Both the position numbers and the translations under genes were made by a program. Below, piece after piece: positions 20,926-64,000 of a DNA stretch of 64,000 bases. The stretch comes from Eukaryota sp. GEM-RC1 (lineage: Eukaryota), in assembly GCA_040285855.1 (NCBI GenBank), contig JAUFOQ010000013.1, positions 124,001 through 188,000 on the forward strand. The letters are read 5' to 3'. The notes under the pieces were generated by a model. The model did no database searches, had not been told where the DNA came from, and saw nothing but the letters and a program-made list of their open reading frames with translations. Numbering within the stretch: the stretch's first letter is position 1; the number at the start of each line of letters is the position of its first letter.

Positions 20926-20956
20926 ACTCCTAGGCAGAAAAAAATATATTTTTATT

Positions 20957-21620: not shown

Positions 21621-21671
21621 TTTTTAATAAATAAAATCATTTTTTTATATAATAGATTTTTTATTGATAAA

Positions 21672-26095: not shown

Positions 26096-26544
26096 TTGAA
26101 GAGATTTTATACAATTTAAACTTCAATTCATAACCAACATATGAAGTTAGAACTTCTCTAGTTGATGCATAGTTGGTAATCACAAACTATTGGGGTCTGT
26201 CAAGAAATGAGTTTATGTGTAAATACAACCAAACAACACATAACTAAGTTACAGAAAACTACCTTCAAAATGATTGTGACTTGTTTAATGACTCATGGTT
26301 AATGGGTATTTCTAAGTCTGACGTAATGATATCGAAACGTTTTGAATCGAGAGATGTCAGTCGCTTTTGATTGTTGATTTAACACCAGAAGTAGTGATGC
26401 GGTGTCGTTTACTTCAAAGACTAGACTTGAACACTATGACTGGCAAATATTGTCACTATTAACGTTCTATTTGTTGTAAGGATTTGAGATTTGTGTACGT
26501 TATGATATTTTATCCAGAATAATTATTGAAGAAACAGATTTATA

Positions 26545-26581: not shown

Positions 26582-26893
26582 CTAAACACCAAAACCGTAC
26601 AAGACACGTCCATGACGTTTCAAAGCATAAACAACATCCATAGCAGTGACAGTCTTCCTTCTAGCATGCTCACAATAAGTAACTGAATCACGGATGACGT
26701 TTTCCAAGAAAGTACGGAGAACGGTACGAGTTTCATCATAGATAAGAGCAGAGATACGTTTAACACCACCACGGCGAGCTAGACGACGGATAGCGGGCTT
26801 TGTGATACCCTGAATGTTTTCACGAAGAACTTTGCGATGACGTTTAGCTCCACCTTTACCAAGACCTTTACCACCTTTACCACGACCAGCCAT
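26582..26893 (-). CDS. H4: Histone H4
   Basis: [24 protein letters not shown]... near-canonical H4. Confidence 0.99.
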
Positions 26894-26970
26894 TAGAACA
26901 GATAATATGGAGAAGATTCAACATTTTGGAAGTTGAACTGAGATTGTCAAATTGTTGTGCATGAAAGAAT

Positions 26971-26980
26971 TTCTCGTGTT
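26971..26980 (-). promoter_or_regulatory. Histone upstream box (AA)CACGAGAA of H4
   Basis: About 80 nt upstream of the ATG. The same core occurs upstream of H3, H2B and H2A. Confidence 0.55.
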
Positions 26981-27197
26981 GAAGTCTTTGTTCATTGCTC
27001 AACACTTCTAAGCGATTTGTTACATACCATGAAACAGTTTATGATCTGGTGTGACACGAACTACAAGTGAAACATTTAGGAGTTTATCGGACAGTGTTGA
27101 AATAAACCAGTTCGAGTATTAACCACAATGGACAATTCAGTCAATGTTATGTAACAAAACAGAAAGAAACTAACAGGTTTTTTTATAGAATAGAAAC

Positions 27198-27213
27198 AGT
27201 GTTGATAAACACC
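27198..27213 (-). terminator. Histone 3' stem-loop (H3)
   Basis: GGTGTT-TATC-AACACT, 13 nt after the stop codon. Confidence 0.85.
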
Positions 27214-27226
27214 ATCGATTAAATAC

Positions 27227-27634
27227 TTAGAAATCCGAACGAATTCTCTTGGCTAAAGCCATATCCTTGGGCATAATGGTAACCCTTTTAGCATGAATGG
27301 CACACAAGTTAGTGTCTTCAAAAAGACCAACTAGATAAGCTTCAGCAGCTTCTTGAAGAGCTGAAATACCAGTGGCTTGGAAACGGAGTTCTCCCTTGAA
27401 TTCCTGAGCGATTTCACGAACTAAACGTTGGAAAGGCAGTTTACGGATAAGCAATTCAGTAGATTTTTGGTACTTTCTGATTTCACGAAGAGCAACTGTT
27501 CCAGGACGATAACGATGGGGTTTCTTGATTCCACCAGTAGCAGGAGCTGCTTTACGGGCAGCTTTATGAGCCAAATGCTTTCTGGGGGTCTTGGCAGAAG
27601 TGGTTTTACGAGAAGTTTGCTTAGTACGAGCCAT
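27227..27634 (-). CDS. H3: Histone H3
   Basis: MARTKQ...[39 protein letters not shown]. Confidence 0.99.
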
Positions 27635-27690
27635 GATAAGATGAAGTCATGGCAATTGTAAGGTTTTCGAACATTTCAAGGTACTCAGGA

Positions 27691-27730
27691 ATTCTCGTGC
27701 AGAGAATTTTGTAGTGCTTATTGTCGTGTT
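27691..27730 (-). promoter_or_regulatory. Histone upstream boxes of H3 (CACGAGAAT and AACACGACAA)
   Basis: ATTCTCGTG at 27691-27699 and TTGTCGTGTT at 27721-27730 on the + strand. Confidence 0.55.
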
Positions 27731-27935
27731 GGATTCATCTTCATTGAAGTGTGGTGTTTTCCCATGGTATAGGTTGTTTCAGTGGTAGTTGCCCAGCAGA
27801 CTTATATTGTAACAGTAATGATGCTCAGAATCTTTACCGATCGATGTGAGTTATTTTGATGATATTGAATCACATGTTGTGATGTGTTAAACAGAAAACA
27901 TGAGGAATACAAAGTAGAAGAAATTAGTTTATAAA

Positions 27936-27951
27936 AGTGTTGATAAACACC
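27936..27951 (-). terminator. Histone 3' stem-loop (H2B)
   Basis: GGTGTT-TATC-AACACT, 15 nt after the stop codon. Confidence 0.85.
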
Positions 27952-27966
27952 GATAATTGAAAGAAC

Positions 27967-28395
27967 CTATTCAGCTTCTCCAGAAGAACTAAACTTGGTA
28001 ACAGCCTTGGTTCCTTCAGAAACAGCATGCTTGGAAAGTTCACCAGGTAGAAGAAGTCTAACAGCAGTTTGAATCTCGCGAGAGGACAGAGTGTTTCTCT
28101 TGTTAATACGGGCAAGACGAGAAGCTTCAGTAGCAATACGTTCGAAGATGTCATTGACAAAAGAGTTCATGATACCCATGGCTTTGGTTGAAATACCAGT
28201 ATCGGGATGAACTTGACGCAAAACACGGTAGATATAGGTAGCCCAGGTCTCCTTACGGGCCTTCTTACGCTTAACTACAACAGGGGCACCACCTTCGGCA
28301 ACGGCTTTAGCGGGAGCCTTTGAAGGAGCTTTGGCTGGTACACCTTTGATAGACTTGGTGGATTTGGTAGACTTTACAGATTTCTTTCCGGGCAT
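27967..28395 (-). CDS. H2B: Histone H2B
   Basis: MPGKKS...[35 protein letters not shown]...[29 protein letters not shown]. The true ATG is at 28395. Confidence 0.98.
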
Positions 28396-28465
28396 TGTGA
28401 GTTGAATATTGAGTTTGAGGATTTCTTGGAAGAAGAACAGTTTGAATTCCAATGGGTCGCCACAC

Positions 28466-28500
28466 CACGAGAATCTCGGCCTCACCTGGATTGTCGTGTT
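28466..28500. promoter_or_regulatory. Divergent H2B/H2A promoter boxes
   Basis: CACGAGAAT (+, 28466) and AACACGACAA (-, 28491-28500) within the 146-nt intergenic gap. Confidence 0.55.
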
Positions 28501-28541
28501 CTTTTCTTATGAGAATTCATTTCCACCATAATTCTCTCTCA

Positions 28542-28922
28542 ATGTCTGAAGAAACTGGTGCTCGTACTCTCTCCTACAAAGCTGGACTTCAATTCCCCGT
28601 TGGTCGTATCCGTAGATATCTACGTGAAGGCAAGTATTCCGAACGTGTTGGTGCTGGAGCTCCTGTTTACATGGCTGCTGTCCTTGAGTATCTAACTGCT
28701 GAAGTTTTGGAATTGTCTGGTAACGCTGCAAGAGACAACAAGAAGTCTCGTATTGTTCCTCGTCATATTCTCTTGGCTATCCGTAATGATGAAGAACTTA
28801 GCAAGCTCTTGTCTCATATTATGATTCCTTCAGGTGGTGTTTTGCCTCATATTCACTCTGATTTGTTACCTAAAGGTTCCAGATCTCGCGATACCGCTGA
28901 GTCTGGCTCTCAAGAGATTTAA
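28542..28922 (+). CDS. H2A: Histone H2A with C-terminal SQEI (H2A.X-type) motif
   Basis: [11 protein letters not shown]...[41 protein letters not shown]. Likely ATG at 28542. Confidence 0.98.
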
Positions 28923-42257: not shown

Positions 42258-44517
42258 GTGTAGATCAACTTCACACATTCAAGAACACAGACTTTTGTGA
42301 AAAGAAGAAAGAAAGAGTTAGAAGCCACGGAGTTCCATTATGGCTTAATCATCTTGTAGAAGGTGTTGACATGAACAAGGATTCCTTGAGAGAATCAAGA
42401 AGAAGACATGGTTGTTGACGTATTGATGAGTCACTAGGAGAGTCTGGACGAGTCTGTCAAAGTCCACAAGAATGTCCTTAAATTTTGACCTATCTCCATA
42501 ACAAGGACATTACCTTGTTGTTGACCGCTCTGTATAGTTCTACTTAGGACACAACAAAAACAAGAATGTCGTATTCAAGCAAAATGTATTGATGACCATG
42601 CGTGTTCTCTCAATATCAAACATCTCACAGTTCCCTTGATATAGTCCTCTTCTCTTTCTCTTACATATAACGTACCGTGTATTCTCCGTGATTAACGTGT
42701 TGAAAGCATTGTCTCCTTTGTGGTCTCCAGTTTCATGAGGAGATGAGATGACACTCTTCCCTGCGTGAGTTGGTCGGAGCATTTCGCACATATTCCCAGA
42801 ACATCAAAGTTCCCTTCGATCATATCTTTCTCCAAGCCACTATTGTAGAAGGTGGATTTGATGATGTAAACGCTTCTAAATGATATACTCTCTCTGCCGT
42901 TGTCGTCACTACGTCTACTCTGACAAGGAATGAACACCTCCATCTTCTCCCTATTTAATCTTCCTCTTCCTTCTGAACCTCCCCTCCATTCTGCTTGATA
43001 TTTGCACCACTATCATTGACAATCTTGATTTTGCTTTGGGAAGAAATCTTCTCTCCTACCCCTTTCAAAAATTCTGACAACAAACACCATCTTAGACTCG
43101 CTCCAACAATACACCGCGTATAGAAGTGTCTCCATTTAAACCTTCTTCTTCCTGGCCACTTCAATCCATTCAATTTCCTTCTAGTTATTGACAATGTCAC
43201 AGTTGCTGATTGTGATTATTATAAGAACTTTCCCTATTTAATTCTTTGATCCCTTTCAATGAGTTTTGTTTGTCTTGTAGTGTGGTTACATTCCTGGTCC
43301 ACATAATGATCTTTATACTCATTGCGCAGTTGAATATCAGCAACTAACTGAAAGAAATGCTTCTGCTGTTCAATGATTGGTGAACCAAAATGTCTAAAAA
43401 TTCCTTCACTTTTGACGAGTCAATAACTGAATCTTTCCAAAACACAATTATAATTTGTCCAACATCAATGGTTTTATTAAAACTGTAAATTGGTGAACTT
43501 TTAAAATTGTCATTAGTTTAGCATCTTACCAATTTGTTCAAAATCATTACTCACTATTATTCCAGAAATCGATTATTTCTGGCCAAAAATCAGGACTTGT
43601 ATGATCATATTTTACGATAACTAATATTTAACTAAGATTTGCAATTTGAACTTTCTAATTCTTAATATTTTGAAATTCAACTAGTGTGCTTCTTAATTCC
43701 ACGTCTTGCTACCACTTTCATCTGCAGTTCTGACGGTGTCACTTCTAAGTTAAGTTACAAATCACAATCAAAACTATTTGTAAGAATGTAACTTAACCAT
43801 TGGATTAAGCTGTGTCATTTTGAACTTAGATCCTGACTTTTAATGAATCACGAACTTATGAAGGTCAATCTGAGGGAAATTTGGACTAAGTTTCACAACG
43901 ACAATGATTCAACTTTTATGTCTATTTTGACACCAATTTAACTGTCACTACAATCAATCTTGGCTTCAATTTCTTTGTGTTTGTATCAAGATATTTTACC
44001 ACATGAAGTTTATTTAGTCGTGTTTTACTCTCGTTCTGTCTGTGCCAATTTGACACGTGTCAATTGTTGACGTGATCAATCTCTTGTAGATGCTCAATTA
44101 TGCTTGTATTCTGAACACAGACTTACAATGCACAATTAGCACATCACTATTCTTAGCTTGTTAATTAATTGCAACAGTTTTGAAAACTCATATAAGGAGT
44201 TCTTTAACATTAGAAATGTTAAAGAATATAGTGGTAAGTAAAAATATTCTTCAATCAGGTACTTGTGCTTCTTGGTGAAGGGTACTGTGTAATTGTTCCA
44301 AAATGACTTAAAATTGCAATGCTTTTCAAAAACAGCATGGTTGTTTCTATTTTCATTATTGTTGATGTTTTTTGCTATGTTAGTGTTGGATTTGAACGTG
44401 TGTTTTTTATGCGTTGTATATTTGATTCAGTGTGTTTTTGTAATTCTATTCAGTGGAGGAAGGAATTTTCGCTACTCAGAATTTCAATACTTCTTCAATT
44501 TGTTTGTTTGCTACAAA
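42258..44517 (+). repeat. 2.26-kb direct repeat, copy 1 (Gypsy integrase-like remnant plus R2/NeSL-like 3' end)
   Basis: Colinear with 52425..54684, roughly 90% identical by eye. Contains TSHSSLDI (integrase-like), KLCHFE..NHEL, IWTKFHND and GTCASW (RLE-like). Confidence 0.85.
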
Positions 44518-44961
44518 CTTTTTAATTCAGGATATTTTTGTACTATTTCTTCATTCATCTTTTGCACATATAATTCACTACCCAAGAGCAAATTAAATCC
44601 CCAAAACTTGGATTATTGTCAAAATTGTTGCCGTAAAAAATAGGATCAGAATGGGTTGTTGCTAATGGATATTTTATTGGAAATGATTTCTTCCAATTGT
44701 AAGAAAGTATAGTAACGGAACCTTCTTTGTTTGTTTGAGGAGAGAACAGAAAAATCTCAATGCACCAAACATCAACACTACATATTTGAGTATCACCTTT
44801 TTGCCGATGAATAAGATTGAGCGTTCGTACGTTGAATTGAAAATCTCTATTTTGCTTTATCAAAATCTAAACCATAATCGTTTAACACTGTTTATTTAAA
44901 AAAATCATTTTTTTACCTCATTGAAAATAAAAAAAACTTTTTTATATTTTTTCTTTTTTCC

Positions 44962-45816
44962 TTAAAATAGAATCCAATCGAAATCTTTCCCATTACTTTC
45001 AAGTCTGTTTAATCGGAACATTATAGTTCGATAATGTCTCTCTACGTCATAATTATTAAAATTAGAATTAATTAATGTGTTTGCAAGCAAAAACATTGTT
45101 CTGCAATAAATAAATGAGACAAATAACGAAGTGACACAATAATTATCAGGATTGAATACACGCGTTTGATTGAGGAACGGTTGACAAAATGAATGACAAG
45201 TGTTGAACTCTCCGAATACATGAGTCATATAAGGAAATTCACTCAAAAACAAATCAGAGATTTGTCTTAGGTCGTTGATTAACTTGGGCCTGTTCATTCT
45301 TCTTAAAAACTTAAAGAATTCTTCGACATAAAGACAGATCTTCAATTTGTATTGTTCTTCTATCTCTTTGTCTGATCTGTTTAATCCACAAACCAGGTCT
45401 TTGCAAAACGTTGCAAAGAAATTAGTCCATTTAACAAAATATCTAATGAATTCCAATTCTGAATCAACGAAGGACTAAGGTTCTGTTGATTTGTGTACAC
45501 CCAATCCCTTGAAACCATTATATACATTAACTGTCTTGAATTCAGCACTGATTGATAGATTGAGTGGTAGATTGAATGTAAAATCTCTTGCCTTGATTCT
45601 GAGTTTCGAAAATTTGTTGGGCAATTTGTTTGTAGAAATCTTGTCATCAGTTTGGTCATCAAATTCTTTGATGTGCCTTTCACGAAGTTCTGGAGGTTGA
45701 CACATAATAATGCACTCATCGATATTTGCATCAAGAGTAGAGGATACAAGAACAACAGAAGAGTCAAGAGTAGCAGTCGTAATAGTAGGAGTTTGCATTA
45801 GAGCAGAAGTTTCCAT
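44962..45816 (-). pseudogene. Hypothetical viral-like gene (about 284 aa) with in-frame TAG
   Basis: ORFs 45475..45870 and 44962..45456 share a frame and are separated only by TAG at 45475-45477. Likely ATG at 45816. Confidence 0.55.
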
Positions 45817-46157
45817 AAGTACAGAGAGTTTATATATTAATATAATTTTCAATTTTTGAATGGTAATCATTTTTTCCCTGCTCCATTTTACTATTGTACG
45901 TATTTCTTTTATTGCTTCTTTTTTCCTTCTAATATTTATACAAAAAACATAACTAACAAAAGCATCAAATTTAGAGTCATTTTTATATAATCAAATATTT
46001 AATGTTAGAAACATTATTTTATTCAAATTTGGTTTTGATGTTTCTCTTAAATATTTCCATAATTTACTTATAGATTCTTCCATTTATGAGAAATTTAATC
46101 ATTTTTTCTACAAAAAATAAAAGATTTTTAGATTATTTTAATAAAATAAAACAACTA

Positions 46158-48263
46158 CAGTCTTCCCCCGGTTTATGTCCACCTCTTGGACTGGACATAA
46201 ACCGAATTTGGACATAAACCGGGGGTTGCTTCGGTGCAGAGTGAACAGATATCTATGGGTCTTTATTGTTATGTGAAATAAAAGCTAAAGTGAGGGCCAT
46301 TCTACTGATGATGGTGTTGTATCAAGGGGTTCTACCATATCGGAGAGAAAGGTCTCCAATTCTAAGACGGTGATATCGTGAGAAATTTCATTTGAATCCT
46401 GGAAATGCAGCCATTGGCAGAGTTGTAGGACACTTTCGTTCATAACAGGAAGCAGTTGTAACAAGTTTGAGGGAGCGTTTAAAGACATAGACGGATCTTG
46501 AAGAAAGGATGTTATGTCAATACGAGAAGGATTGCAAAGTAGAAACCGACGATTGACAGCAAATAAAAAGTTTTGAAGGGAGTATAGAGCATTCAAGGCA
46601 TCGTATTCTGATAGCAATGAAGAGGATGATGTCTTCTCACATTGAAAGTTCTCAGACTCTAGCAAGATGTCCAAGACTGAATCCACAACATAGTCTCTTT
46701 CCATGCTTCTTCCTTCTTCTTCATCGCCTGTTACATCTTGATCATATTCGTTAAAGACGGTTCCCATGCTATCATCCATTCTTAACTTTTTCGATCAATG
46801 TTGTCTTTCGCCAACAGTTGATGATTGACACAGCTCCTACCTGATCCCATGCAAATTTACATAGCTCCACTGCTTCATATAGGGTAAAGTCACGCATTGC
46901 TCCTTTTTGCTTGAATATATAATTTACTATACCTCTCTTATAGTAGTTTTTAAACGCTTTGATAACACCTAAATCCAGAGGCTGTAACTTACTCGAGGTG
47001 TTTGGCGGAAGGAACTCTAGACGCACATTACTGAACTCATCTTCAATCTTGTGAGAAGGAACGTTATCTACTAAAAGAAGGATCCTTCTTCCTTGGGATC
47101 TCATCTCCTTGTTGAGGGTGTACATATAGTTGTAGAATATCTCCTTTGTCATCCAACCTTTAGCATTGTTGGTATAAACTAAGTAATCTCGAATGTTTTT
47201 TCCTTTAAAATGATGTGGATTCTTTGCTTGTCCAATCATCCAAGAATCCAGTTTCTCACCAATAGCACTAACAGTGAGGACAAGTGTCACTCTATTCTTG
47301 AAATTCTTTTTACCATGTAATTTTGTGAGAGCAGATATTGTCTTGGTTGGAAGTGCTTTCCAAAATAACGCGGTTTCATCCATGTTAAAGACATTATGGA
47401 TTGGGAAGTTATTGATGATCATGCGAATATCAATTATACGAGTAGCATGTAAAGCAAGGTCAACACTGGCCTCTTCTCCGTGAATAGTCTTTAGAGAGAG
47501 ATTATGGCGCTTCTTGAATCGCGTTAACCATCCATTAGATGCGGTAAATTGTGAGTCCAATCCTATTCTATCTGCTATCCTAAGCCCTATCGATTGTAGA
47601 AGCCACTCTGTTATAATAATACGGCCATCTAGTTCTTCAACAAGTTTGGCCAGAATTTGTTCGAGGATTGGATAGTCGGATGACTTAGATGACTTATATG
47701 GTCCAGAATCAGGTCTTGCTGCTGTGCGAATCCTACGTACAGTTCGCGGAGAAACAGAGATATTGTACATAGAATTCAGATGGGATACCATCGCTGTTTC
47801 TGAAAGACCACTATCATGGGCAAACTGCCATACATATAGTTTTTCATCCCCAGTTAAGCGGATACGAGTCTTTACATCTGCACGTCGTCGTCTTTTGGGT
47901 GGTTGTAATGCGATTTGGTTGCAGTTGCTGGAGGAGGGAGTCAGTGGTTGTTGTGTTGAGGTATTAGAGGTTTGAGTTGAGGGAGACAGTTGTACTTGTT
48001 CGTCAAGAGCTGTAGGAAACACTGAAGTCAATTCAGATGGAAAGTGGACAGCGACTAGGCTATCAATAGTATCATTGATACCATCAAGCATTATGTAATG
48101 AAAACGGTAAGTAACAATGTTTATTGAAGAAATAAGAAGGAGATCGGTCGATGAACGATCAACGGAGAGAAGAAGATCGATCGACAAAAGTCGGACAGGA
48201 AAATTTTGGACATAAACCGAGTTTGAACATAAACCGAATTGGACATAAACCGGGGGAAGACTG
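46158..48263 (-). mobile_element. Full-length pogo/Tigger DNA transposon
   Basis: Perfect 24-bp TIRs CAGTCTTCCCCCGGTTTATGTCCA, TA target duplication at 46156-57 and 48264-65, and subterminal GGACATAAACCG repeats. Confidence 0.95.
46285..48091 (-). CDS. pogo/Tigger transposase (HTH, CENP-B HTH, DD30D, acidic tail)
   Basis: FTASNGWLTRFKKRH, FNMDETALFW, LLLVDNVPSH and LPPNTSSKLQPLDLGVI, with 30 residues between D2 and D3. One frameshift at an A5 run near 46787 joins the acidic tail ORF. Confidence 0.92.
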
Positions 48264-48409
48264 TACAAAAGATTAAATTTTTTCAATTTCATAATAATAT
48301 TTTAAGATCTAAAATCTATAGGACTTTTGCGTTCTTTTTAAGTGGATATAGTTCATCTATATAAAATACAACTTTTTAAATCTATTTTTTAACACAAGAT
48401 AATTTTGAA

Positions 48410-49277
48410 TCAAAATTTTTGATAATCTAATAATTCACTATATTCTTTTATTATTGTATTATTATATATTAAAAATAAACGAGAATGAGAATAAAATATA
48501 TTATCATCTTTTCTCAAATGTATAAATGATATTTCTCTATTCAAAAAATTAGAAAATAGATGCTTTACATTAGAATCATAAAAACCTTTTTTATTATTTA
48601 TTAATATAATAGAATTATCTCTTTCATTTATATTTAACATTTCTAATATTTCATTAAAAATATTTTCATTCACATTATAATATTCTTTCATGTAAGGATT
48701 GTATAATTGAGAGAGAAATTTATTCGACACCCAATAAGGTAACCTTCCTACAAACTATGAAATTGTAAAAACAAACAAATAATACTAAGATTAAATCCAA
48801 ACGACTTCATCACCACCCGGTAAAAAATTACGTTTATCAACATTAACCTTCACACCAAACTTGTACAATTTCTCAATTAATCTAGAGAAAAAGAAAGGAA
48901 TATTCCGATCTATGGAAAACACTATACGGATTTTCCATTCAGCCATTCTAAACTTACGCTTCTTTTCTTTACCCAATTCTTCGAAATCCTTGAAAAATTG
49001 ATCACCAGCAGGACTAATAGATCCAAAAAGAGAAACAGCAAAAGGTTGAAACACAAATTTGGAATATGAGTTTCTATTTAATTCTTCTACTTGAGAGTCA
49101 TACTTAGCTTTTCAGCTGCTGTTAATGGATTAAAAGAAGAATCTAATATCCTACTAACACAAGATTTGTTACATACATCTACTGTAGTAAAATCCATTAA
49201 TGATTGCCTCGATTTAAGCCACGGAGTATGCAAATCCAAAGTTAGTTAATGATATTTTCATCTAATTGTAATAACAT
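48410..49277 (-). pseudogene. Very AT-rich viral-like gene split by a CRE insertion
   Basis: MLLQLDENIIN (49277-49245) upstream of the insertion and FLSQLYNPYMKEYY... (48718-48410) downstream. Confidence 0.4.
48719..49237 (-). mobile_element. 5'-truncated CRE-like retrotransposon (RLE endonuclease end plus 3' UTR)
   Basis: DLHTPW..MDFTTVD..AEK..KYD..FQPFAVSLFG. The 3' end is near-identical to 12824-12981. Confidence 0.85.
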
Positions 49278-50037
49278 TTATTAATGAATAAAATCATTTT
49301 TTTTAAAAATAAAATTATTTTTAATTCTAAATATTCTAAATTCTATTTTAAATCTTTCCTTTATATATCAAGCAGGGCTCCTCATAAATAAATATAAATT
49401 CTATTTATTTCTATTTATTTCTATTTCTATTTATTTTTGACCCTTTTTGGCGGTCATGCAAATAAACAAAAATGCAACAAAATGAAAATATATATAATAA
49501 AATGTCGGAAAGAAAACTTCATTGATCTCCATAGTGCATGAGTTAAGTTAGTTCTCAATGTTGTTGATTGACTCAAACTTTGCCATTTCAATGTCGAACC
49601 TAACCAACGCAGATGAGCATTTACCTCTGTTCTAAGCCGATCCAACGACTATATCCGAACATATGATCAGTGAACGACTCTCATGGTCGTCCACGATGTT
49701 GACCATTGAACTAATTATGAGGATCCACATATCTCTATGGCATGGCGACGCAGTTAGAGCAATTATACGAAGCAGAAAATCAACTACCCTTTTCCACAAG
49801 AAAGGGATGATCCAATGGATTGTGTATTCATCGGTAGTGACTGAGAGAAAATGTACTGATAAAATATTTTGTTTTTTTTGGGTTTTATTTTGTTTTAATT
49901 ATATTTATTTAACATTTATTTTTGGCACTTTTTTTATTACCTATTCATTTTTCTATCAAAAAATAATTATATTTAGTTAAAACTCTAAATTTAAATTTCA
50001 TATTTTTCAAAAAATTGTCTTTTTTGAATACAATCTT

Positions 50038-50373
50038 TTAATTCCCCCTTAAGACGCCCTTCCACTCAGAAACCTCACCTTTAGCGACCTCCAACCGCTT
50101 CTTCTCCCCCACCGTTAGAGGAATTGGGACGACGTCAGTATGCATCAAATCCCTGAAGTTGTACCGAACCCATGTCGGCCGCCTTGGGGGAGCCCTAACT
50201 CCAAGACCCCCTAGAACCCTCTCCTGTATAACTTCTACACCATGGAGAACGAGCGCCCTCACTACATTAAATTTAGAAACCTCAGTCGGCGTCAACGTCC
50301 CAATTCCAGTTTCAATCCTTTTGAAGGAGATTACCCGATCTTGGAAGTCGGACAACGACATCAAAAGTTGCAT
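50038..50373 (-). CDS. Hypothetical protein (111 aa)
   Basis: Clean ATG-to-stop ORF, GC-richer than its AT-rich flanks, with AATGATT about 15 nt upstream. Confidence 0.45.
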   Translation of the reverse strand: MQLLMSLSDFQDRVISFKRIETGIGTLTPTEVSKFNVVRALVLHGVEVIQERVLGGLGVRAPPRRPTWVRYNFRDLMHTDVVPIPLTVGEKKRLEVAKGEVSEWKGVLRGN

Positions 50374-50849
50374 CAGATACGTTAATCATTAGTTGGAATG
50401 TTCTTCCGTACAAAAGATAAAAATCGAGCATAGTAATAGTAAAAGATTTTGTCTATTACATTTAGAATAAATAATTCGTAGTTAAACAAAAATTTTTAAC
50501 TCATGATATTTTGATATTATTTCTTCATTCATCTTTTGAATATATAATTCAATAGGATATACTTTTTTTTCATAGTCTTTAAACTTTTTATGATGATTTT
50601 TATATAAGAATTTATTTGCAACAATAAATTAATACATACTAATTCAGAAAATGAAAGAAGTTACATTCAGGAATTATTCCTCGAGTTGAAAGAGAGGATG
50701 GAGCTTTAAGATTAATTGGGTAATTATATTTTTCTTCGTTGGTTGGATCAAGAAAATGAATCAAGGTTAAAAAAATGTTTTCATATTCCGATTAGTTTAT
50801 TGCTTATATCATGTCAGACAAAAAGCAACTCCTCGCAAAACTTTCACAA

Positions 50850-52424: not shown

Positions 52425-54684
52425 GTGTAGATCAACTTCACACATTCAAGAACACAGACTTTTGTGAAAAGAAGAAAGAAAGAGTTAGAAGCCACGGCGT
52501 TTTAGTATGGCTTAATCATCTTGTAGAAGGGGTTGACATGTGCTAATGATTCCTTGAGGAAAGAGTCAAGAAGAAGATCTGTTTGTTGACGTATTGATGA
52601 GTCAATATGAGAGTCTGGACGAGTCTGTCATAATCCACAAGAATCTCCTTAAATTTTGACCTAACTCCTTACGAAGGTTTACCTTGTTTTTGACCGCTCT
52701 GCATAGTTCGACATTAAACACAACAAAAACAAGAATGTCGTATTCAAGTAAAATGTATTGATGACCATACATGTTCTCTCAATATCAAACATCTCACAGT
52801 TCCCTTGATATAGCCCTCTTCTCTTTCTCTTACATACAACGTACCGTGTATTCTCTGTTCTTAACGTGTTGAAAGCATCGTATCCTTTGCAGGTTTCCGA
52901 GGAGATGAGATGACACTCTTTCCTGCGTGAGTTGGTCGGAGCATTTCGCACATATTCCCAGGAAATCAAAGTTCCCTTCGATCATATCTTTCTCCAAGAC
53001 CCGATTATAGAAGGTGGATTCGATGATGTAAACGCTTCTAAATGATATACTCTCTCTGCCGTTGTCGTCACTACGTCTACTCTGACAAGGAATGAACACC
53101 TCCATCTTCTCCCTATTTAATCTTCCTCTTCCTTCTGAACCTCCCCTCCATTCTGCTTGATATTTGCACCACTATCTTTGACAGTCTTGATTTTGCTTTG
53201 GGAAGAAAGCTTCTCTCCTCCCCCCTTCCAAAAAATTCTGACAACAAACACCATCTTAGACTCGCTCCAATAATACACCGCGTATAGAAGTGTCTTTATC
53301 TAAACCTTCTTCTTCATGGTCACTTCAATCCGTTCACTTTCCTTCTAGTTAATTACCACGTCACAGCTGCTGATTGTGATTATTCTAAGAACTTTCCCGC
53401 TCTAATTCTTTGAACTCTTTCAACGAGTTTCGTTTGTCTTGTAGTGTGGTTACATTCATGGTCCACATACTGAACTTTAGTCTCATTGCGCAGTTGAATA
53501 TCAGCAACTTACTAAAAGATAATGCTTCTGCCCTTCAATAATTGGTGAACCAAAAGGTTTAAGTAAACCTTCACCTTTTGACGAGTCAAGTGCTGAATCT
53601 TTCCAAAACACAATTATGATTTGTCCAACATCAATGGTTTTATTAAAACTGTAAATTGGTGAACTTTTAAAATTCTCATTAGTTTATCATCATACCAATT
53701 TGTTCAAAATCATTACTCACTATAATTATTCCAGAAATCGATTATTTCTGTGCAAAAATATGCAGAAAATATAGTTTGTATGATCTTATTTTACGATAAC
53801 TATTTAACTATGATTTGCAATTTGAACTTTCTAATTCTCAATATTTTGAAATTCAACTAGTGTGCTTCTAAATTAGACGTCTTGCCACCACTTTTATTTG
53901 TAGTTCTGACGGTGTCACTTCTAAGTTAAGTTACAAATCACAATCAAAATTATTTGTAAGAATGTAACTTAACCATTGGATTAAGCTGAGTCATTTTGAA
54001 CTTAGATCCAGACTTTTAATGAATCACGAACTTATGAAGATCAATCTGAGGGAAATTTGGACTAAGTTTCACAGTCATGATTCAACTTTTATGTCTATTT
54101 TAAAACCAATTTAACTGTCACTAGAATCAATCTTGGCTTCCAATTTCTTTGTATTTATACCGAACTGTTTTACTACATGAAGTTTAATTAGGCGTGTTTT
54201 ACTCTAATTCTTTCTGTGCCAACTTGACACGTGTCTATTGTTAACGTTATCAACCTTTTCAGTATGCTTGTATTCTGAACACACAGTTGCATTGTACAAT
54301 TATCGCATCACCATTTGTAGCTTGTTAATTAATTGCAACAGTTTTGAAAACTCATATAAGGAGTTCTTCAACATTAGAAGTGTTAAAAAATGTAATGGCA
54401 AGGGAAAATATTCTTCAATCAGGTACTTGTGCTTCTTGGTGAAGGCTACTGTGTAATTGTTCCAAAATGACTTAAAATTCCAATGCTTTTCAAAAACAGC
54501 ATGGTTGCTTCTATTATCATTATTGAATTTGATGTTTTTTGTTCTGTTAGTGTTGGATTTGAACGTGTGTTTTTTATACGTTGTATATTTGCTTCAGTGT
54601 GTTTTTGTAATTCTATTCAGTGGAGGAAGGAATTTTCGCTACTCAGAATTTCATTATTTTTTCAATTTGTTTGTTTGCTACAAA
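52425..54684 (+). repeat. 2.26-kb direct repeat, copy 2
   Basis: Colinear with 42258..44517, with the same 3' end point (...GTTTGCTACAAA). Confidence 0.85.
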
Positions 54685-54937
54685 GTAATCAATGCAATTT
54701 ATCATTTTGATGTCGATGTGATTCATTTTCTCCTAAAAGTATTTTATAATTATTTAATAAATCTTTTAAAGCTTTTTCTCTGATAGCAATATCCATATTT
54801 TTTATATATTTTAAAAAATACATCATTTTGTTATAAAATTATTTAAAAATTGTTATAAAAAAACTTTTTTTATTTTAAGAATTTACTATAATTGATTTAA
54901 TGTTCAATATGGTAAATTTTAAATATGGGAGAAAATC

Positions 54938-55965
54938 TTATAGACTTAGAAGGCTATGGGAATTGCCCTTTATAATTTTAGTGATAATGAATTTATTGAT
55001 TTCTTGGACAAGCTTTCTATTCCAATCGAAACCACCGATGAATTTACCAGGTCTAAGTAATTTAACGTTGGGAACGTTAATCCTGTGTTGGCTACCATTC
55101 TTAACTTCATCCAAAGTTTTTGCGAACTCTAAATAACTTGATGAAGATTTCTCTATTACCGGCACGTATGCTAACATGAATACCGCTAAGAATTGTTGAG
55201 CATCTTTCGAAAATTCTACTCCAAAGTGTTTTTCGAAGAATTCACTAATGTGTCCTTTCTCAACTAATGCTTTCGCATATCTTTTGACGTACTTCGATTG
55301 AGATGACACTTCGTAAATGTCGTTGTAGAGGTTGAATAATCCCCTACATCGTTCGTCAGTTAACCCATATTCAATACATGATTCTTTTCTAGTATTGGTG
55401 AGGAGTTTAAGGAATTTATCAGCGCGAACCATATCGGCTGATCGAACTCTTGGTGTATTCTTAAGCCTTTTGAGTCTTAGGATGACTGATCGGATGACTT
55501 TGGAATAATCCTCACTGATGGGGGCTTTTGACAGAATTCCATAATTGTTCACGAGAGCCAAAGAGTATGCAACAATCGGGTTCCTGTATCCCGATTCTCC
55601 ATGAATTCTGCGGAAATCCATACATTCTTGATAATCGTAGAAATTATCTTCTAGCGCATAAATACCATAATTAACCCTGTCGAGGAAATCGGGTTGTTCG
55701 AGGGAAGAGTGGACAGGGAAATCTCCTCGTTTAATCAATGAATATTCGTCAGCGATGATGTCCCAATGGAGAAAATGCTCGCAACAATCTTTGGTAGTGA
55801 AGTCTTCGGGGATTGGAAAATTGTATTTTCACAACGAGCTCTGAATTTATTGGCTGTTTCGTCGGAGGCAGGATTTCTTTCAGAAAGATAAGTGGTGGTG
55901 GTGCCTTCTGGGGCGATATCGTTCAAACATTGGAATACGCGTTGTAATTCACGTAAAAGTTCCAT
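54938..55965 (-). CDS. Hypothetical viral-like protein (about 340 aa, one frameshift)
   Basis: ORFs 55735..55965 and 54938..55738 join with one extra base, plausibly in the A4 run near 55827. Confidence 0.5.
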
Positions 55966-56263
55966 AAGTAGAAAGATAGATGGAGGTATTTGTAAAAAAA
56001 ATCATTTTAATTCTTTTAATCATTTTTCTTCTTTGGTTTGGTGAAAAATATTGGGGTTGTTGGTTGGATTATTGAGGGAGTAGGGTTCCGTCGATATCAA
56101 TTCCTAAAGTTCTGATTCCTTTTTTACTCAAGGCTATCAATAGATGCGCCTTCCCACAAAACGGGTCTAATAAAAATTGTACTTCATTCTTCACTAAGAA
56201 CCCGACAATATCTTGAATGAATCCTTGATGGTTAAAAAAATATAAAGTAATGAACGAAGATTT

Positions 56264-59200
56264 CTAATTATCTTCTCCTTCATCATTAACATTGTTCACC
56301 ATATTTCTGATTCGTCTGAATTCAGAAACATCATAAGCGTGGATATAGGTTTCGTTATCATTCAATCCAAAGATTTGATTAACGTGCTTGAGAGTTGCTT
56401 TTTTCAAAATTGATGGAACAATCTCACAGCCCTCAGAATTTGGAATGTGGTAAAAGACTGGAAAAGTCTTAATACAATCATAAACAGAAACATTGTTAAT
56501 TTTCAATTTAGTGATAGTCTTTTTCAATTTATCTTTTACGTCAGTGAGTGGATAATAATTCTTTTCTAATTGCTTCAAAATCTCTACTTTTGTGGACTTA
56601 GGCAAGCTCATAAAATCGGGATGTTTATCAAGATTCACGATATAGCGTTTACGAACTACATCATTGGTCATCGAACCATTTCCCAATATTGATTCGTTGA
56701 TCCTAAGATGCGATAAAGGTGGTTCGTATTTGTTGAAGTCAGTTCCATTCTTTAATGGGATTTCAAGTTCTTTAGATCCAACGATATTGTCTGAGAAATT
56801 ATGAACCATGACGAATAAAAGTATACAGAGTGCTTCAGCCATTATTGGACGACATAAAGTATTTTGAAGCGTAAAATCCGCCAGATGAATATTTTTTAAA
56901 CAGCTCTCGTCGAAATTTGTGGACTTTTTTAATTCCACAACTCTATCTCGATGTGTAGTGGCGTCATAGAATTGATTACAAAATTGTTTTACTTGAGTTC
57001 TTCTTATGATGCCTCGATCTGCCGAATTGATTCTGACTTCATCATTTTGTGAGAGTATAAAACAACATTCAATGATATAGTTATTCGGAGATTGATGAAT
57101 TAATCTTAGACTCCTCTCTCCTCCGTTTTCGGTTAATTCTTTCACGGCGGCTGGATTAATTGGGGCTCTAGGTTCAGATACAGACGCAAAATCTATCCCA
57201 CCAACTAATGCCTCCAATCTTCCATCGTGTGAAGAGTGACTGAAGAGTGACTGAACGACAAAAACCTCTAGCAGCAATATAGGTGAGATAATACACAGCA
57301 TTAGAATCGAAATAATAACCTCCAACCCACATTCCGCCTTTTTCGTTCTCGGGATTGATTGTGTGATCCGTTAAGATTTCTGAAAAGACTTTACAAACGA
57401 ATTGAATATTCTTTAATTCTTCGTCTTCTTCTCCAGGAGAGAAATTTGGATTCGTTAAAGTTCTCCAAATATGTTCTTGACCATTGGCCATTAAATATTT
57501 TGGAAAGTTAATGTTGGTGGACTTAGTGATAATGTATTTTCGGATTAAATCAGGATTCGTCTCAAACTTAATTCTATCCTCCATCGAATGAGCGAGTGGA
57601 TTCACGATTACATATCCATTAATGAAAGAATGGATCCAACAATTTTCGATCCCCTTAAATTCGATAGTCTTTGGATTCACATCTTCGACTCTGACATATC
57701 TTTTTCGATCTAAGGCTAGATGGTCAATCAAAGCTTTCATAAATCTAGTCTGATTAATGTCCGACTTAAACTTCACAAGAAACTCTATAATCTTTTTTAA
57801 GATGGAACGATTCAAGGAATTCTCGTTAATCTCACAATCCTTTTCCAATCGTTCTCTCAACTTATCAACCATAGTTATAAATTCTCCACCGTCATCAAAA
57901 AACTTAACGAGAAGTCTATTTAATTCGAGAGGAACATTCTTGGTTTCCATTGAGATGGATTGAGTGCAGCCCCATTTATGAGTGTAAACAGTGGGATTGT
58001 AGATGTAGAGAATGCAACCTTCTTTGTTGTTGGGATTCGTCTTAACTCTAATGTTTTGAAATCTTTCAGCATAATTCGTCAAAATGAATTTAACGAGACT
58101 ACACATATTCTGACTCCATGGAGTGATGAAATTTCCGAACATATTCAAGAAAGCTTTAGCCTTTTCTTCGAGTAATTCTCTTGGTCGATATTCAGGATCA
58201 AGTTGTTGTTGAATCAATCGATTTCAACTTTTAGATCGAGTCAAGTCGAAGGACATGATGTTCTCGAATAGAGCAGCTGCATCTTTATTTTTACTCTCAC
58301 CGAATAAAAAGTTATTGATTTCGACAATGAGCTTTGTGTCAGGATCAAACTCTTGATAGAATTTCTTTAAGGCAGATCTAACGGCAATTTTGTAAATACG
58401 GTCCGATCTAATCTGTTCTAGATGTCTCGATAAAACCACAATTTGTGTTGCGAGTTCTGGATCATATAAAGAGACTTCATCATAAAGTTCTTTAGCATCT
58501 CCCATAGAAATATTCCCTGAAGATTCTGCAATACCTTGAAACGGCGACAAAGAATGAATAAAGCCTCCACATTTGAGTGTAAAGTCTGAGTGTGCTTTAT
58601 TAACTTTTATCGAATTTTCATGATCGTAATCGTAGATAGTTTCATAAACCAATTCATTGTGATTCGATTCGAAATATCTGAAATCGGAGATACGATAAAT
58701 CTTTGCAGGGATATACATATGTCTCGATCCAACACCCGGTACGAATAACCAATTGAATGCAGAAGTTAGGGGACCCTTATCAATAACTTTCTTCAAATCT
58801 TGTCCTTCGAAAACGTCCATCAAGTATTTATTTTTACTGACGACTTCCAATAAAGTATCATAGATTTTGATTCTTGTTGCTTTATCGAACAATCGATTAG
58901 AAAGATGGATGTGAAGGCCCGCTTTAATCTTCGTGTCATTGGATGCTTCGATCTCTTCAACAACTTCATTATTTTCAATGAATCTTTGTTTCGAGGGAAT
59001 TGCTATCGTGAGATAAGAAGCTTCAGAGGCCCCAAGGACAAAACTATCATTGAGGGTTTGATTGATTGCTATTATTAAATCTTCAGAAATTCGTTCACCA
59101 ATGGTTTCTAAAAAGGTCCTAGAGACCGGAGAATTCCAAAAGAGATCGAGATCTAAATTGATTGAGCTGATCGGACCAGAATTAAAAACATGAGGCTTTT

Positions 59201-59287
59201 TTAAGGATTTAGATATAATACTATTAAACACTCTCGAACATTCTTTTCATCAGCGGTTGAGATGTTCACGATTTCTGGAACCGACAT
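56264..59287 (-). pseudogene. D5-like primase-helicase (AEP primase + D5_N + SF3 helicase), about 1000 aa, disrupted
   Basis: AEP motifs INLDLDL, KAGLHIH and VIDKG...NWLFVPG. D5_N-like FINGYV and YIITKSTNINF. SF3 Walker B/motif C region FASVSEP..VKELT...RLIHQ...FILSQN...DRGIIRR...F. In-frame TGA at 58224-58226, two frameshifts, and no Walker A found. Confidence 0.75.
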
Positions 59288-59525
59288 TTATAAGAGATTT
59301 ATTAATTGATTCGCGTTAATCATTTTTATGAGAAAAATAAAGGAATTTGAATATCATTCATTTTTCCGACGAAAAATATAAATTGTAAAATCACAATGAT
59401 GGCAATCGAGTTTAATAATCAACTCAATCACCATCATCACAATTTTACATTTCGATCAATGGAAACATTTTTCTGACCAATCTTCATTTTTCTTTTACGT
59501 TAAAAAATAATAATGATTTGATTGA

Positions 59526-61085
59526 TTAAGTTCTTTCGGTGGAATGATATTTCAGGATATAGTTCCCAAGCTTCTCACATTCTTCCGGAATATAAAAATC
59601 ATAAATTAACTTTGGGGCTTCAATTCTTTCGACGATGTCAGTTCCTTCGATTTTACGGGAGATAATCATATTTGAGTTTCCAATATTATCCATAGCATCC
59701 CAGATAGAGTTTGGATTCGTCACAACAATCCTAATTACTTCTGTAACGTGAGAGCTCATTGAAGCAATTTCTTGTTTTGGCTTGTTGCGATATCTTGAGT
59801 CATCCGTTATGAACGTCTGGACCCAATTACCATAAACGCGAGCCGCCAGAATAAGAATGGTTCCATTGAATCGTTCAATTTAACTACAAGAAGGAGTTAA
59901 CAATCTTTCACTATCTGCTTTAATTCCATTGAAGAATGTTCGATGCCTAATATAATCCTCATTAGAGAAGGGTCCAGAAACACTATTATTAATTCGTGAA
60001 TCAACAAAATCTGTAAGCTTTACATAGAAACATTCGAACCTGTTACGGATCGCATTTTTCTTCATTTCTGCATTTAACGTAGTCATCACCGAATTGAATG
60101 CTTGACCAAAAGTAATGGAGTCAAAATTGTCTCTGTAAAATGCTTTAAATGAATTGAGATCAACACACTTATGATACTTTGATACACCCTTGATTGATTG
60201 TTTTAAAGAAATCAAATCTCGTTCAATCCTTTGATAGTCAAAACTATCATGGGCGATTTATTTTTTGAATAAGTTAGAAGTTTCGTCTAAATACTTTTTG
60301 AGGTCCATTCCTCCCATTAGTTCTTTTTCGTGTTGGGTTTTCATCCCAATCGATCTTTTCCCATTTCAAATTGATGCCTAAATGTCTTAAGTAGAATTCG
60401 GTTTGTTCATTCTTGAATCCGATGAATCTTGAATTCATTCCACTAAAACTGAACGTGACACGGATAGCGTTATGATGTGCTTGGTCCATGTTCCCAAAGA
60501 ATAGGGCTCTAGCCAATATTCTGAATTTTGAGGCCATTATTACGGAAGACCTCATTAGATTGCTGAACTTTGGAAACCATTGCCGTTGGCCAGTATCTTG
60601 AGATCATTAATTCTTTTAGATTGTTGGCGTAGGTGTTGAATGACGAATATATCTTATGAAGATGATTGAAAGAGACCATAGCTGTGTCATTCGTCATATT
60701 TGGATTTCGCATATTCATGACATCTTGTGGAAAGCATGGTAATAAGAGCGAAATGTTGCGTAACATAGGTTGAAGATTATCAAAAACCACATTGAATCCG
60801 TTGATTTGAAAGAAAGCCAAAACCTCGTTGGTTAATTCTGTTGCATTAGTGTACAGTTCAAGTACATGGTTGATATAAACAATGTCGAGGGGTGCGTTGC
60901 CGAGAGTGAGATAGTAAGGAGAGTCTCTATACATTTGTCGAGCGTGAAAGGTTCTTTAAAAATATATTCAATTTTATTCTCAATTTCATTTTTTCTGGAC
61001 CACTCTTTATAGCGTAGGTACATATAGTCCCGCTATAAACAGTGTTGACTGTATCTGTATGAATATATTTTATAATTGATTCCAT
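59526..61085 (-). pseudogene. Large hypothetical viral-like gene (about 500 aa) in fragments
   Basis: Consecutive fragments 60832..61023, 60509..60934, 60274..60555, 59880..60215 and 59526..59759. The last two share a frame across a single TAA. Confidence 0.5.
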
Positions 61086-61306
61086 TTTATAGATATACAT
61101 TCACTTCTTTACAAAAAAAATATTAGGGCAAGCCCGATTCCATATATAAGAAATCTATATTTATATACATACTAAATAGATATTTGCATGTTTTATTCAT
61201 TATTCATTATAACAATAAACAAACAAATACAAATTTAATAAACACAAACAATAAGATTTGCTCAAACACCCATCCGGGTCGATGAAACCAGATCCTGTTT
61301 GTTCAA

Positions 61307-61370
61307 ATCCACTTCGATCCCGCTCCACTTCGATCCACTTCCATCCGATCCACTTCGATCCACTTCATTC
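61307..61370. repeat. Short tandem ATCCACTTCG repeats
   Basis: About five copies of (AT)CCACTTC(G) in an otherwise AT-rich spacer. Confidence 0.75.
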
Positions 61371-61934
61371 CAAATCTAATTCGATTCGGTACACCCAAAA
61401 GTTTTAATCAATTTTTAATCAAGTATTCACTTTTCTACAAATTTAGGTTGGTAAATATAGTCAATCAGTAACGCTGGCAACTCCATCACATCCTAATTAT
61501 ACATTTACAAGACCGTAAGTTGTACACCCTTTCGAAATGGACAACATCAATCTTGCAAAAGACCAAAAAATATTTTGTATAAAACCATTAAACTTCAACA
61601 TCGAAATGTTTTAGAGTAGTGGGTTCAGGTTCTATTATTTGAAAAATTCAATTTTTCAAAATTGATTCACTTTTCTACATAAAAAAATTAGGATGATCTA
61701 AATATGTTGTGTGCATATTTAGCAAGTGCTTTGCTACAGCTCCTGTTTTATCACCCCCAAGGAATACATCCATCAAAGCTGCGAACAACTTAACAAGACT
61801 ATCCTTGAAAAAAGGGTTTTTATAACAAAGCTACAAAATACTACTGTAAAATAGTTATCTAGACAATGTCCGGTTCCGTTATTCGAAAAATTCAATTTTT
61901 TAATCTCTGATCATTTTTCTAAAAAAAATATTTA

Positions 61935-63557
61935 TTAATAAGATTTCTTCAATACTAATTATTTTTATATAATCAAGGATCTCACATTTTATTTTTATTT
62001 CAGAATCTATATCAAAAGATTCAATATTTATTTTTTAATCAAATCAAATTCTTCAACATAGATTTTATTCTTATCAACAACATATGCATTGAAAGTATTT
62101 ATATTAACTGCTTTCAAATATTTAGTAATCAAGAATTCATTATATTCTCTTTCAACATATTTATTAGCATTCGATTGTTCATTAATCTCATGACATAATA
62201 ATTCAAGATTATCAATCTCTTCATCAAATAATAAATGATGAGTTAAGATATCAGCATATCTTCTTATGGGTGAAGTGAAATGATTATATAGATCAGCTCC
62301 AACTCCTACATGCTTTGCAGATGTTCCACATTTTATTATTTCAAATTTAGCAGCATCTAATCCAATACGTTTTACAATATTAGATCATTTCTGTTCATCC
62401 CAACCACTATGACTTCTAACAATCATGGTAGAGTTTAGCTTCTCATAAATTTTAGTGGCAATTACAGTATTAGCTAAGATCATCAATTCTTCAATTAAAC
62501 TTCCAGACTTTGATCTAGGTTCCATTATGAATTTACTATTTCTAGGATTTTCATAATCAAACTCAAATACAAACTCTTCACCATTATTTATGACTAAAGC
62601 TCCATTCTTGAATCTTTTCTCTTTTGTATATAGACATATATTTTATAATTGCAAAAACATATCATATGCTTCAATTATTTTATCAACTTCATTATAAGTA
62701 TATCTATAGTCAGATTTAACTATAGTTCTTTTAATGTCAGTATTAACAATTTCATTATTACTATCAAAAGTTATATAAATTGAGATAGCTCTTTTTCTTT
62801 CACCTATATTTAATGAACAAATAGATTCAGTTAAATTTCTATCTAACATTGTATAGACAAATTTAGTTAAATAAATACTGCTTCTTAAATATCCTAATGA
62901 ATGATTAGAAAAATAAGAAGTAACATCTGCAATGTGTATTCCTATTTTAGTGAATCCTCCACTAAGTCTTTCAAACGAAGTTGCATCATCAAAATCTTTT
63001 GTTGTTTCAGCATCAAAAGTGAAAGTGTGTGATCTATTTATGTATCTTATGTGTTTATATCTATTCATTTCAAGAGGCATTTGTGGATAACATAATTTAT
63101 ATTTTCCTAAAAGGAAGAATATCTTTTTTCATTTTCATCAGTTATTTGTCTTACAATTTCATATGATTGACAATCATTTAATTTCAATAAAAACACATTA
63201 TCTTTTCACAGTATCTAGTTTTGATTAAAGGAAATCCTTTCATTAAGTTAATAAAAGATTTGTTATGTTTACCTCTATTTTCAATTACTCTAGCACCAAC
63301 TATATAAGAAGGTTTATGGACTATATCAATTATGTTAGGAGTCTCATCTTTATTCTTAGTTGCTAATATCCAAGTACCAGGGAATAAGTTATCATTGATT
63401 ATATTTTTCTTTCTATAATTTTGAAAGCTCATATTGTTTAATCTATAGAATTTTCCAACTTTTTAAATCAACAGGAACAAACCTGACATAACAATTTTGT
63501 TCACCTTCAACTTGAAAAATAAAGGATAACATTATATACACCTACAAAAAAAATCAT
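61935..63557 (-). pseudogene. RNase II/R (RNB) family exoribonuclease, disrupted
   Basis: FTFDAETTKDFDDA, GIHIADV, SSIYL, ICSL, LIEELMILAN and [13 protein letters not shown]. In-frame TAA (62643) and TGA (62385) plus frameshifts; very AT-rich. Confidence 0.88.
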
Positions 63558-63563
63558 TTTCCT

Positions 63564-64000
63564 TTAAGGGCAAGAAGTTATGAATTTATGAAATATATCT
63601 TGAATTTGTCTGTAATTGTGGAATTTACATATCTTATATAAATCAGTACATGATGTTGAAAGATCGCGTTTCATGAAGATTCCTAAAACAGTATATCCAT
63701 ATACATTATAGTTTATTGGTGGTGATACAGTATCACCTATTTTTTTAACAGTTTTCAAAACAATTAATATTTGTCGGTTATATATTCCCTCCGTGTTTAT
63801 ACTTTAAAAAAATAATCTTTTTTTTCAAACACCAAGTTTATTATGTTCTACTTGTTCAAATGCTTCAGGTGTATATAACTCAGCAAATTTTGAATTAAGA
63901 TTCAACATAAAGGTTTGATTGTAATTTTTGTTTCTGCTCCTGCTAAGAAGTCAGCATTAGGTTTTGTTACCCCGGGTTTATAATAAAATAAACCCAGTAG
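63564..64000 (-). pseudogene. 3' part of another disrupted viral-like gene
   Basis: ORF 63564..63758 plus broken upstream frames, ending 7 nt from the next gene's motif/ATG. Confidence 0.35.

Follow-up and report, generated by a model that had tools for sequence, protein, structure and literature searches.

A decayed D5-type primase-helicase in an integrated viral-type island of Eukaryota sp. GEM-RC1

The window analysed here, a stretch of 64,000 nucleotides (nt) from Eukaryota sp. GEM-RC1 (assembly GCA_040285855.1, contig JAUFOQ010000013.1, positions 124,001 to 188,000), contains an island with the remains of two ORFans and of a D5-type gene, in which an archaeo-eukaryotic primase (AEP) is fused to a superfamily 3 (SF3) helicase (Table 1). 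The island is well supported as an integrated, dead and very divergent viral replication module. Its foreign composition, the giant-virus type of its AEP, the diverged copies elsewhere and the lack of a plasmid or phage match all argue for an integrated element of viral type, and a chromosome-scale host contig, foreign composition and decay, the features of an endogenous element, are present together. With somewhat better than even confidence we take the island for what remains of a large DNA virus, as yet undescribed and of Nucleocytoviricota type, and favour this over a satellite. A sequence-only reading had proposed an integrated large-virus fragment at 54,685 to 64,000; the integrated, decayed element of viral type stands, and its assignment to a large virus or to Nucleocytoviricota is likely rather than shown.

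Table 1. Coordinates of the features described (window positions)
Feature	Position	Strand	Remarks
Foreign-composition island: D5 pseudogene and two ORFans	54685..61000	-	no CpG depletion
D5-type AEP-SF3 primase-helicase pseudogene	56264..59287	-	~1,008 codons; frameshifts, stop, no Walker A
AEP catalytic core, motifs I (DxD), II (KxGxH) and III (D) intact	58780..59155	-	alignment, Pfam, D5 profile
SF3 Walker B, B', C and arginine finger	56900..57200	-	giant-virus and phage P4-type profiles
C-terminal ~200-residue region of primase-helicase	56264..56915	-	relatives found only under the same source label
First frameshift, near 5' end	about 59230-59270	-	primase-helicase
In-frame TGA	58224-58226	-	primase-helicase
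Second frameshift	about 57230-57290	-	primase-helicase
Perfect tandem duplication, 11-nt period	57230..57255		at second frameshift; TRF finds the same
Two AAAAATGA copies, 78 and 40 nt before inferred primase-helicase start	59320..59365	-	
ORFan A, ~340 codons, one frameshift near 55830-55850	54938..55965	-	paralog P0128
Paired motif, elements 62 and 44 nt before ORFan A start codon	56002..56027	-	
Methyltransferase-motif-I-like remnant (S-adenosylmethionine-binding), start-less, weak	56072..56263	-	Pfam, TIGR
ORFan B, either a single broken gene of ~470 codons or several short genes	59526..60934	-	two stops, two frame changes
Paired motif, elements 59 and 41 nt before ORFan B start codon	60968..60993	-	
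Three paired motifs (61408-61434, 61648-61674, 61892-61918)	61408..61918	-	~240 nt apart, no long open reading frame behind
RNase II (RNB) pseudogene, two in-frame stops, frameshifted 5' part	62028..63560	-	Pfam RNB E=9.8e-61
Host-like repeat, 2,257 nt, left island border	52426..54682		second copy 42259-44515, 90% identical

The primase-helicase pseudogene

The gene spans an ATG at 59287, a start codon inferred from its spacing to an upstream motif, to a stop at 56264. Described earlier as a single open reading frame (ORF) of about 1000 amino acids (aa), it is in fact split by two frameshifts and one TGA into four pieces: a short 5' piece in another frame, 59246-58224, 58223-57174 and 57370-56264. 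Its length is in line with D5 references, 65 of them filtered to 840-1,030 aa and two asfarvirus-like ones of 1,018 and 1,124 aa. Because Pfam gave only AEP_C962R, below its cut-off, three D5 profiles were built from IMG/VR proteins pulled with two Walker A patterns. The class labels (the 65 giant-virus-type proteins, 17 hand-picked proteins of phage P4 type and three asfarvirus-like ones) were assigned in this analysis. Among 337 window ORFs, the giant-virus-type profile found the AEP piece at E=3.1e-6 and the helicase piece at E=3.6e-6 (19.5 bits), with the next ORF at E=0.48; AEP followed by SF3 is the order expected of D5. Control sequences made from the read-through, 300 shuffled and one reversed, scored no higher than 2.8 bits, compared with 16.6 and 17.0 bits. 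The 17-protein phage P4-type profile missed the AEP piece in the same set of ORFs, and the asfarvirus-like profile fitted worst (14.9 bits, AEP missed).

AEP motifs I to III, noticed from the sequence alone, align with invariant columns of giant-virus-type D5 proteins: all six (D32, D34, K108, G110, H112 and D156) are invariant across the 16 rows of the alignment, 15 of which are such proteins. The SF3 motifs proposed at the same time are there in part. Walker B reads VSEP, and the B', C and arginine-finger stretches are also found, but Walker A is absent: neither GK[ST] nor NGK occurs in any of the three minus frames of 59330-56260, and the alignment has a gap. The motif normally lies 58-59 residues before the Walker B glutamate (measurable in 45 of the 65 references). 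Two alignments are possible around the missing stretch, and the P-loop is absent in both. A D5_N-like segment, also proposed, was not recovered; Pfam gave neither D5_N nor PriCT in the primase-helicase pieces, the middle piece scored E=2.3 against the giant-virus-type profile, and its F-x-N-G stretch is at most suggestive of D5_N. The Atlas feature neighbours of the helicase piece are DUF5906 and Pox_D5 clusters. Single-sequence folding of the AEP piece gave no usable model (pLDDT 33).

The 11-nt duplication is the only perfect tandem of period 11-15 in 54685-64000. As it sits at the second frameshift, a single event is suggested, and one deletion there likely removed the P-loop and shifted the frame. 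With Walker A lost, this copy is not a working helicase. In a living virus the protein would, to judge from its family, act as an ATP-driven ring helicase that lays RNA primers. An alternative genetic code does not account for the breaks: genes are interrupted by each of the three stop codons (TAA, TAG and TGA), and host ORFs of 470-774 aa are intact.

The breaks could be sequencing errors, and the whole an assembly chimera or the DNA of a co-cultured virus. Part of the frameshifts do sit in homopolymers and may be assembly errors, and two of the three copies of a host BTB gene are frameshifted too. However, the five in-frame stops across three genes, the missing P-loop and the 11-nt duplication are unlike homopolymer errors, diverged copies lie on two other megabase (Mb) contigs, and patches with the same upstream motif are interleaved with host genes and transposons over 40 kilobases (kb). 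We regard such an artefact as highly improbable.

Composition, gene content and the paired upstream motif

The island has an observed-to-expected CpG ratio of 1.09 (208 observed, 191 expected) versus 0.61-0.63 in host regions, a GC content of 35% and third-position GC (GC3) of 0.33-0.38. Its dinucleotide distance to the host is 164-188 in three 2-kb segments, while 19 host segments have a mean of 66 and a maximum of 170. As the sequence-only reading had it, every gene of 54685-64000 lies on the minus strand, with short AT-rich spacers; all are broken. The setting is that of a host chromosome, a contig of 2.14 Mb, and the window holds four histone-fold genes, an RRM protein, BTB, kinase and LRR genes, and transposons. 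Each copy of the 2,257-nt repeat ends at a virus-like patch, the 42259-44515 copy abutting a virus-like ORFan.

Upstream of the island genes stands a paired motif, AAAA(A/G/T)TGA...AAA(A/T)TGA, with its elements at about 60 and 40 nt; it is a new observation of this analysis. As AAAADTGA-N9-13-AAAWTGA, a pattern defined after inspection, it has seven copies in the 64 kb where 0.10 are expected, and none of 100 shuffles reaches seven. All seven lie on the minus strand inside virus-like patches, five of them within 54685-64000; of the other two, the one near 21620 is at a TFIIS-like gene and the other precedes an ORFan at 45816. The single motif precedes five of nine virus-like candidate starts, some of which were picked with the motif in view, versus none of 12 host-type starts. 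The core matches in sequence the early promoters described for poxviruses (AAAANTGAAAA) and mimivirus (AAAATTGA) (PMC5294985) and the early motif reported for pacmanvirus, again AAAATTGA (PMC11788076). It is a putative promoter and would point to an RNA polymerase of Nucleocytoviricota type, own or borrowed. Borrowing may apply because satellites use the same promoter: AAAATTGA is reported in the Polinton-like virus PgVV-14T (10.1101/2022.07.28.501842) and in the pacmanvirus transpoviron (PMC11788076).

The other two motif-bearing loci are separate patches. The ORFan at 44962-45874 has one internal TAG and the motif elements 58 and 40 nt before its ATG at 45816; it and the D5 island probably stem from one element family. 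The second patch, at 20930-22650, is AT-rich (GC 25%) and carries, 33 kb from the island, a frameshifted gene for a TFIIS-like zinc ribbon (Pfam E=2e-4) at the paired motif, together with a broken ORF (22609-22017) whose CxxC and helical region recall TFIIB by eye, with no Pfam match; it is possibly another virus-derived insert. Runs of T6-T8 occur within about 110 nt downstream of all six virus-like genes (stops at 54938, 56264, 59526, 62028, 44962 and 20957) and recall the T-rich terminators of poxviruses and asfarviruses, a weak sign in AT-rich DNA. A shared 3' A7-G-T7 hairpin was not confirmed, as only the ORFan A site fits within one mismatch. At 61307-61372, between the promoter-like repeats, lies a short degenerate tandem array of period about 10 or 25, with a unit like ATCCACTTCG.

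The ORFans of 340-500 aa announced by the sequence-only reading fared unequally. ORFan A is backed by P0128, which is 61% identical, runs continuously across the frameshift and sets the start at 55965; on this comparison it is a real protein family, with no function assigned. Its model is all-helical and of low confidence (pLDDT 49), with a low Atlas recognition score and no Foldseek match, and the JGI metagenome scan gave no relatives. The sole IMG/VR match, L241, with 36% over 84 aa and a stop inside the match, was attributed to chance. ORFan B has no confirming homolog; as a single gene it requires two frameshifts and two stops, and its first piece (141 aa) has been annotated as a gene model, which is alone in its cluster. 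All matches of the methyltransferase-like remnant (TPMT E=0.009 and N6_N4_Mtase E=0.085 in Pfam, TIGR01177 E=0.003) are below cut-offs.

The RNase II gene, read earlier as part of the same insert, keeps its RNB identity, and its membership of the D5 island is improbable by composition. The 62000-64000 segment has a CpG ratio of 0.24, a GC content of 26% and a GC3 of 0.15, and its dinucleotide distance to the D5 island (177) is on a par with that from island to host. Because the two differ in this way, 54685-64000 probably comprises two inserts, the second, with the RNase II gene, being of uncertain and possibly viral origin. Its core of 247 residues is inside the range of proteins from giant-virus metagenome-assembled genomes (MAGs; 199-273, n=10) and below that of bacterial-type ones (259-320, n=40). 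The best BLAST matches are bacterial RNase R proteins at 30-36%, the giant-virus MAG proteins ranking 161-198 of 198, and in a quick tree the gene is a long branch with no settled placement. N-terminal profiles, whether giant-virus or bacterial, did not match the N-terminal piece, and the IMG/VR scan gave no relatives.

Pfam (E<=0.001) found no capsid, polB, A32 or integrase in any of the 101 window ORFs of at least 85 aa, in agreement with the earlier statement on capsid and polB, nor a large RNA-polymerase subunit or VLTF3; Polinton-type capsids often escape Pfam, and the insert in the window is a fragment. The lack of a capsid gene among these ORFs would suit a capsid-less cytoplasmic linear plasmid or similar replicon that had virus-derived transcription signals and was later integrated, and yeast linear plasmids have a poxvirus-like upstream signal. 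The window, however, has no protein-primed polymerase or RNA polymerase, and 72,556 bacterial plasmid records gave no match, so we consider such a replicon improbable.

Several other features of the window deserve mention. The 2,257-nt repeats have TGTAG...CTACA ends, resembling long terminal repeats, and no coding function was found in them. Between them, 48300-50700 is an AT-rich patch with ORF fragments and undepleted CpG (0.97), and 50489-50554 is 86% identical to 44515-44580. An intact Tigger/pogo-type DDE transposase ORF with perfect 26-nt terminal inverted repeats lies at 46156-48265. A compact histone cluster (26585-28922) has ORFs for H3, H2B and H2A and a fourth histone-fold ORF, probably H4. 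The three BTB-domain genes (2825-5096, 7694-9133 and 23205-26122) are ~95% identical and differ in their C-terminal fusions (LRR, ubiquitin hydrolase); the frameshift in two of them is at the same site.

Relatives, lineage and origin

With the helicase piece as query, a full HMMER scan of 1.84 billion representatives found two proteins, the gene model of the window itself and P0003, which is 23% identical (E=2.9e-15) and lies on a 3.98-Mb contig. In the cluster of the window's own model is P0004, about 98% identical over 290 aa, on a contig of 2.10 Mb. The ORFan A search kept two of 417 candidates, its own model and P0128; the latter is on the same contig as P0004, 33 locus tags away. All these relatives are labelled Eukaryota sp. 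GEM-RC1. Best matches to plasmid or phage proteins would have counted against the earlier reading; none was significant (best E=7 in the plasmid records and E=3 in a phage collection). A word-based search with the AEP-plus-middle read-through scored none of 7,994, IMG/VR scans with the AEP piece and the AEP motif pattern gave no relatives, nor did a PDB sequence search, and PHROGs held no relatives of the D5 pieces or the ORFans.

The proposed helicase phylogeny was built, and it gave opposite answers. In a helicase-core tree of 46 rows, in which the core is at most 26% identical to any reference, the gene falls outside the giant-virus clade (support 99), beside another long branch. With L055, L011, L141, L160 and L080 removed, it moves to the giant-virus side (support 90, unstarred). 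The gene is a long branch in both trees, and their disagreement weighs against a large virus, as do several other points. The phage P4-type profile fits the helicase piece better than the giant-virus one (E=3e-7, 23.6 bits versus 19.5), the Pfam AEP_C962R match to the AEP piece (E=0.002-0.004) is under its gathering score, and the reference sets contained no Polinton-like AEP-SF3 proteins. AEP-SF3 fusions are reported to be common in Polinton-like viruses and able to move alone (10.64898/2026.10.13.758929), and their exchange with giant-virus D5 has been described (10.64898/2026.10.13.758929; 10.64898/2026.06.19.733378). Further, the early promoter occurs in Polinton-like viruses and transpovirons as well, the paired pattern was defined post hoc, and the hallmark genes are lacking from the window.

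These points lend themselves to a reading in which a Polinton-like virus or a virophage-like or transpoviron-like satellite (15-40 kb or smaller) integrated repeatedly and decayed, the island being its replication module. Such a satellite would borrow the RNA polymerase of a giant virus and therefore have early promoters. DNA methyltransferases are given as its typical cargo (10.64898/2026.06.19.733378), and a methyltransferase-like remnant lies downstream of the helicase; one of the four Atlas clusters among the matches listed has Preplasmiviricota as its commonest phylum, with two members known; and one helicase tree excludes the gene from giant-virus D5. A satellite is nevertheless at odds with the absence from the window of a capsid, A32 ATPase, integrase or terminal inverted repeat. 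The paired motif is also found at the TFIIS-like gene, a type of gene expected in large viruses, and P0004 and P0128, if they derive from a single insert, are farther apart than a typical element of 15-40 kb is long. We rate a satellite as the main rival and the less probable origin.

On the favoured reading of a large virus, related viruses would have entered the host genome more than once, repeated entry being suggested because the copies are at about 98%, 61% and 23% identity. To judge from the motif, a virus-type RNA polymerase would have recognised AAAA(A/T)TGA promoters and transcribed the viral genes early. Inserted pieces may then have been cut by host repeats and have decayed, a deletion at the 11-nt duplication taking out Walker A and shifting the frame, and the RNase II gene would have arrived as a separate, differently composed insertion. 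Only tentatively do we go further and suggest a deep-branching, undescribed lineage of order level within Nucleocytoviricota, with a free-living anaerobic metamonad host, a doubled early promoter, a D5 C-terminal domain of its own and several entries into the host genome.

Significance and comparison with known systems

Pieces of endogenous viruses are common in protists, so such an object is nothing unusual in kind; endogenous viral regions are reported as common and often degraded across 7,103 surveyed assemblies (10.1101/2025.04.19.649669). Distinctive here are the host group and the remoteness, with only same-label copies among the 1.84 billion representatives for the helicase fragment. 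The source label names an anaerobic metamonad. Skoliomonas sp. GEMRC is described as an anaerobic soda-lake metamonad with a Nanopore and Illumina assembly, and the main text of its genome preprint does not contain the words 'virus' or 'viral' (10.1101/2023.05.03.539051). A literature search, which did not reach most subscription papers or any bioRxiv supplement, found no report on viruses of skoliomonads. Should the source prove to be a large virus, the range of hosts would gain a group of free-living anaerobes, and a deep branch would stand next to the gut-associated egoviruses, for which kinship with poxviruses has been proposed. Where protein similarity fails, the paired motif is a handle that marks the genes of the element, and if the lineage entered this host several times, its core genes could be recovered from the assembly by means of it.

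Polinton-like viruses and other Polisuviricotina have AEP-SF3 replicases with the same domain order, often accompanied by methyltransferases; they integrate in protist genomes, and some rely on a helper virus's promoter, AAAATTGA. They differ, in a comparison by description only, in the capsid, ATPase, integrase and terminal repeats, none of which was seen here. Egovirales, an order proposed within Pokkesviricetes, are linked to Parabasalia and ciliates (10.1101/2024.03.23.586382), and the main text of that preprint mentions neither Skoliomonas nor barthelonids. They are large DNA viruses associated with anaerobic protists, metamonads included, with homologs of their core genes in host genomes; unlike the present element they are gut-associated, again by description only.

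Nucleocytoviricota early promoters have the same core as the motif described here, within about 100 nt upstream of start codons, whereas the core is doubled here, with a spacing of 18-20 nt. A tandem early promoter is said to precede one vaccinia gene. The D5-like primase-helicase is given as a core gene of the phylum (10.64898/2026.08.29.747986). Unlike D5 proteins such as vaccinia D5 and ASFV C962R (AEP_C962R, PF23162; Pox_D5, PF03288), the present copy is a pseudogene that has lost Walker A, in which D5_N and PriCT were not detected, and it ends in a ~200-residue region of its own. It shares with them the N-terminal AEP with DxD, KxGxH and D, an SF3 helicase with Walker B, B', C and arginine finger, and a length of ~1,000 residues.

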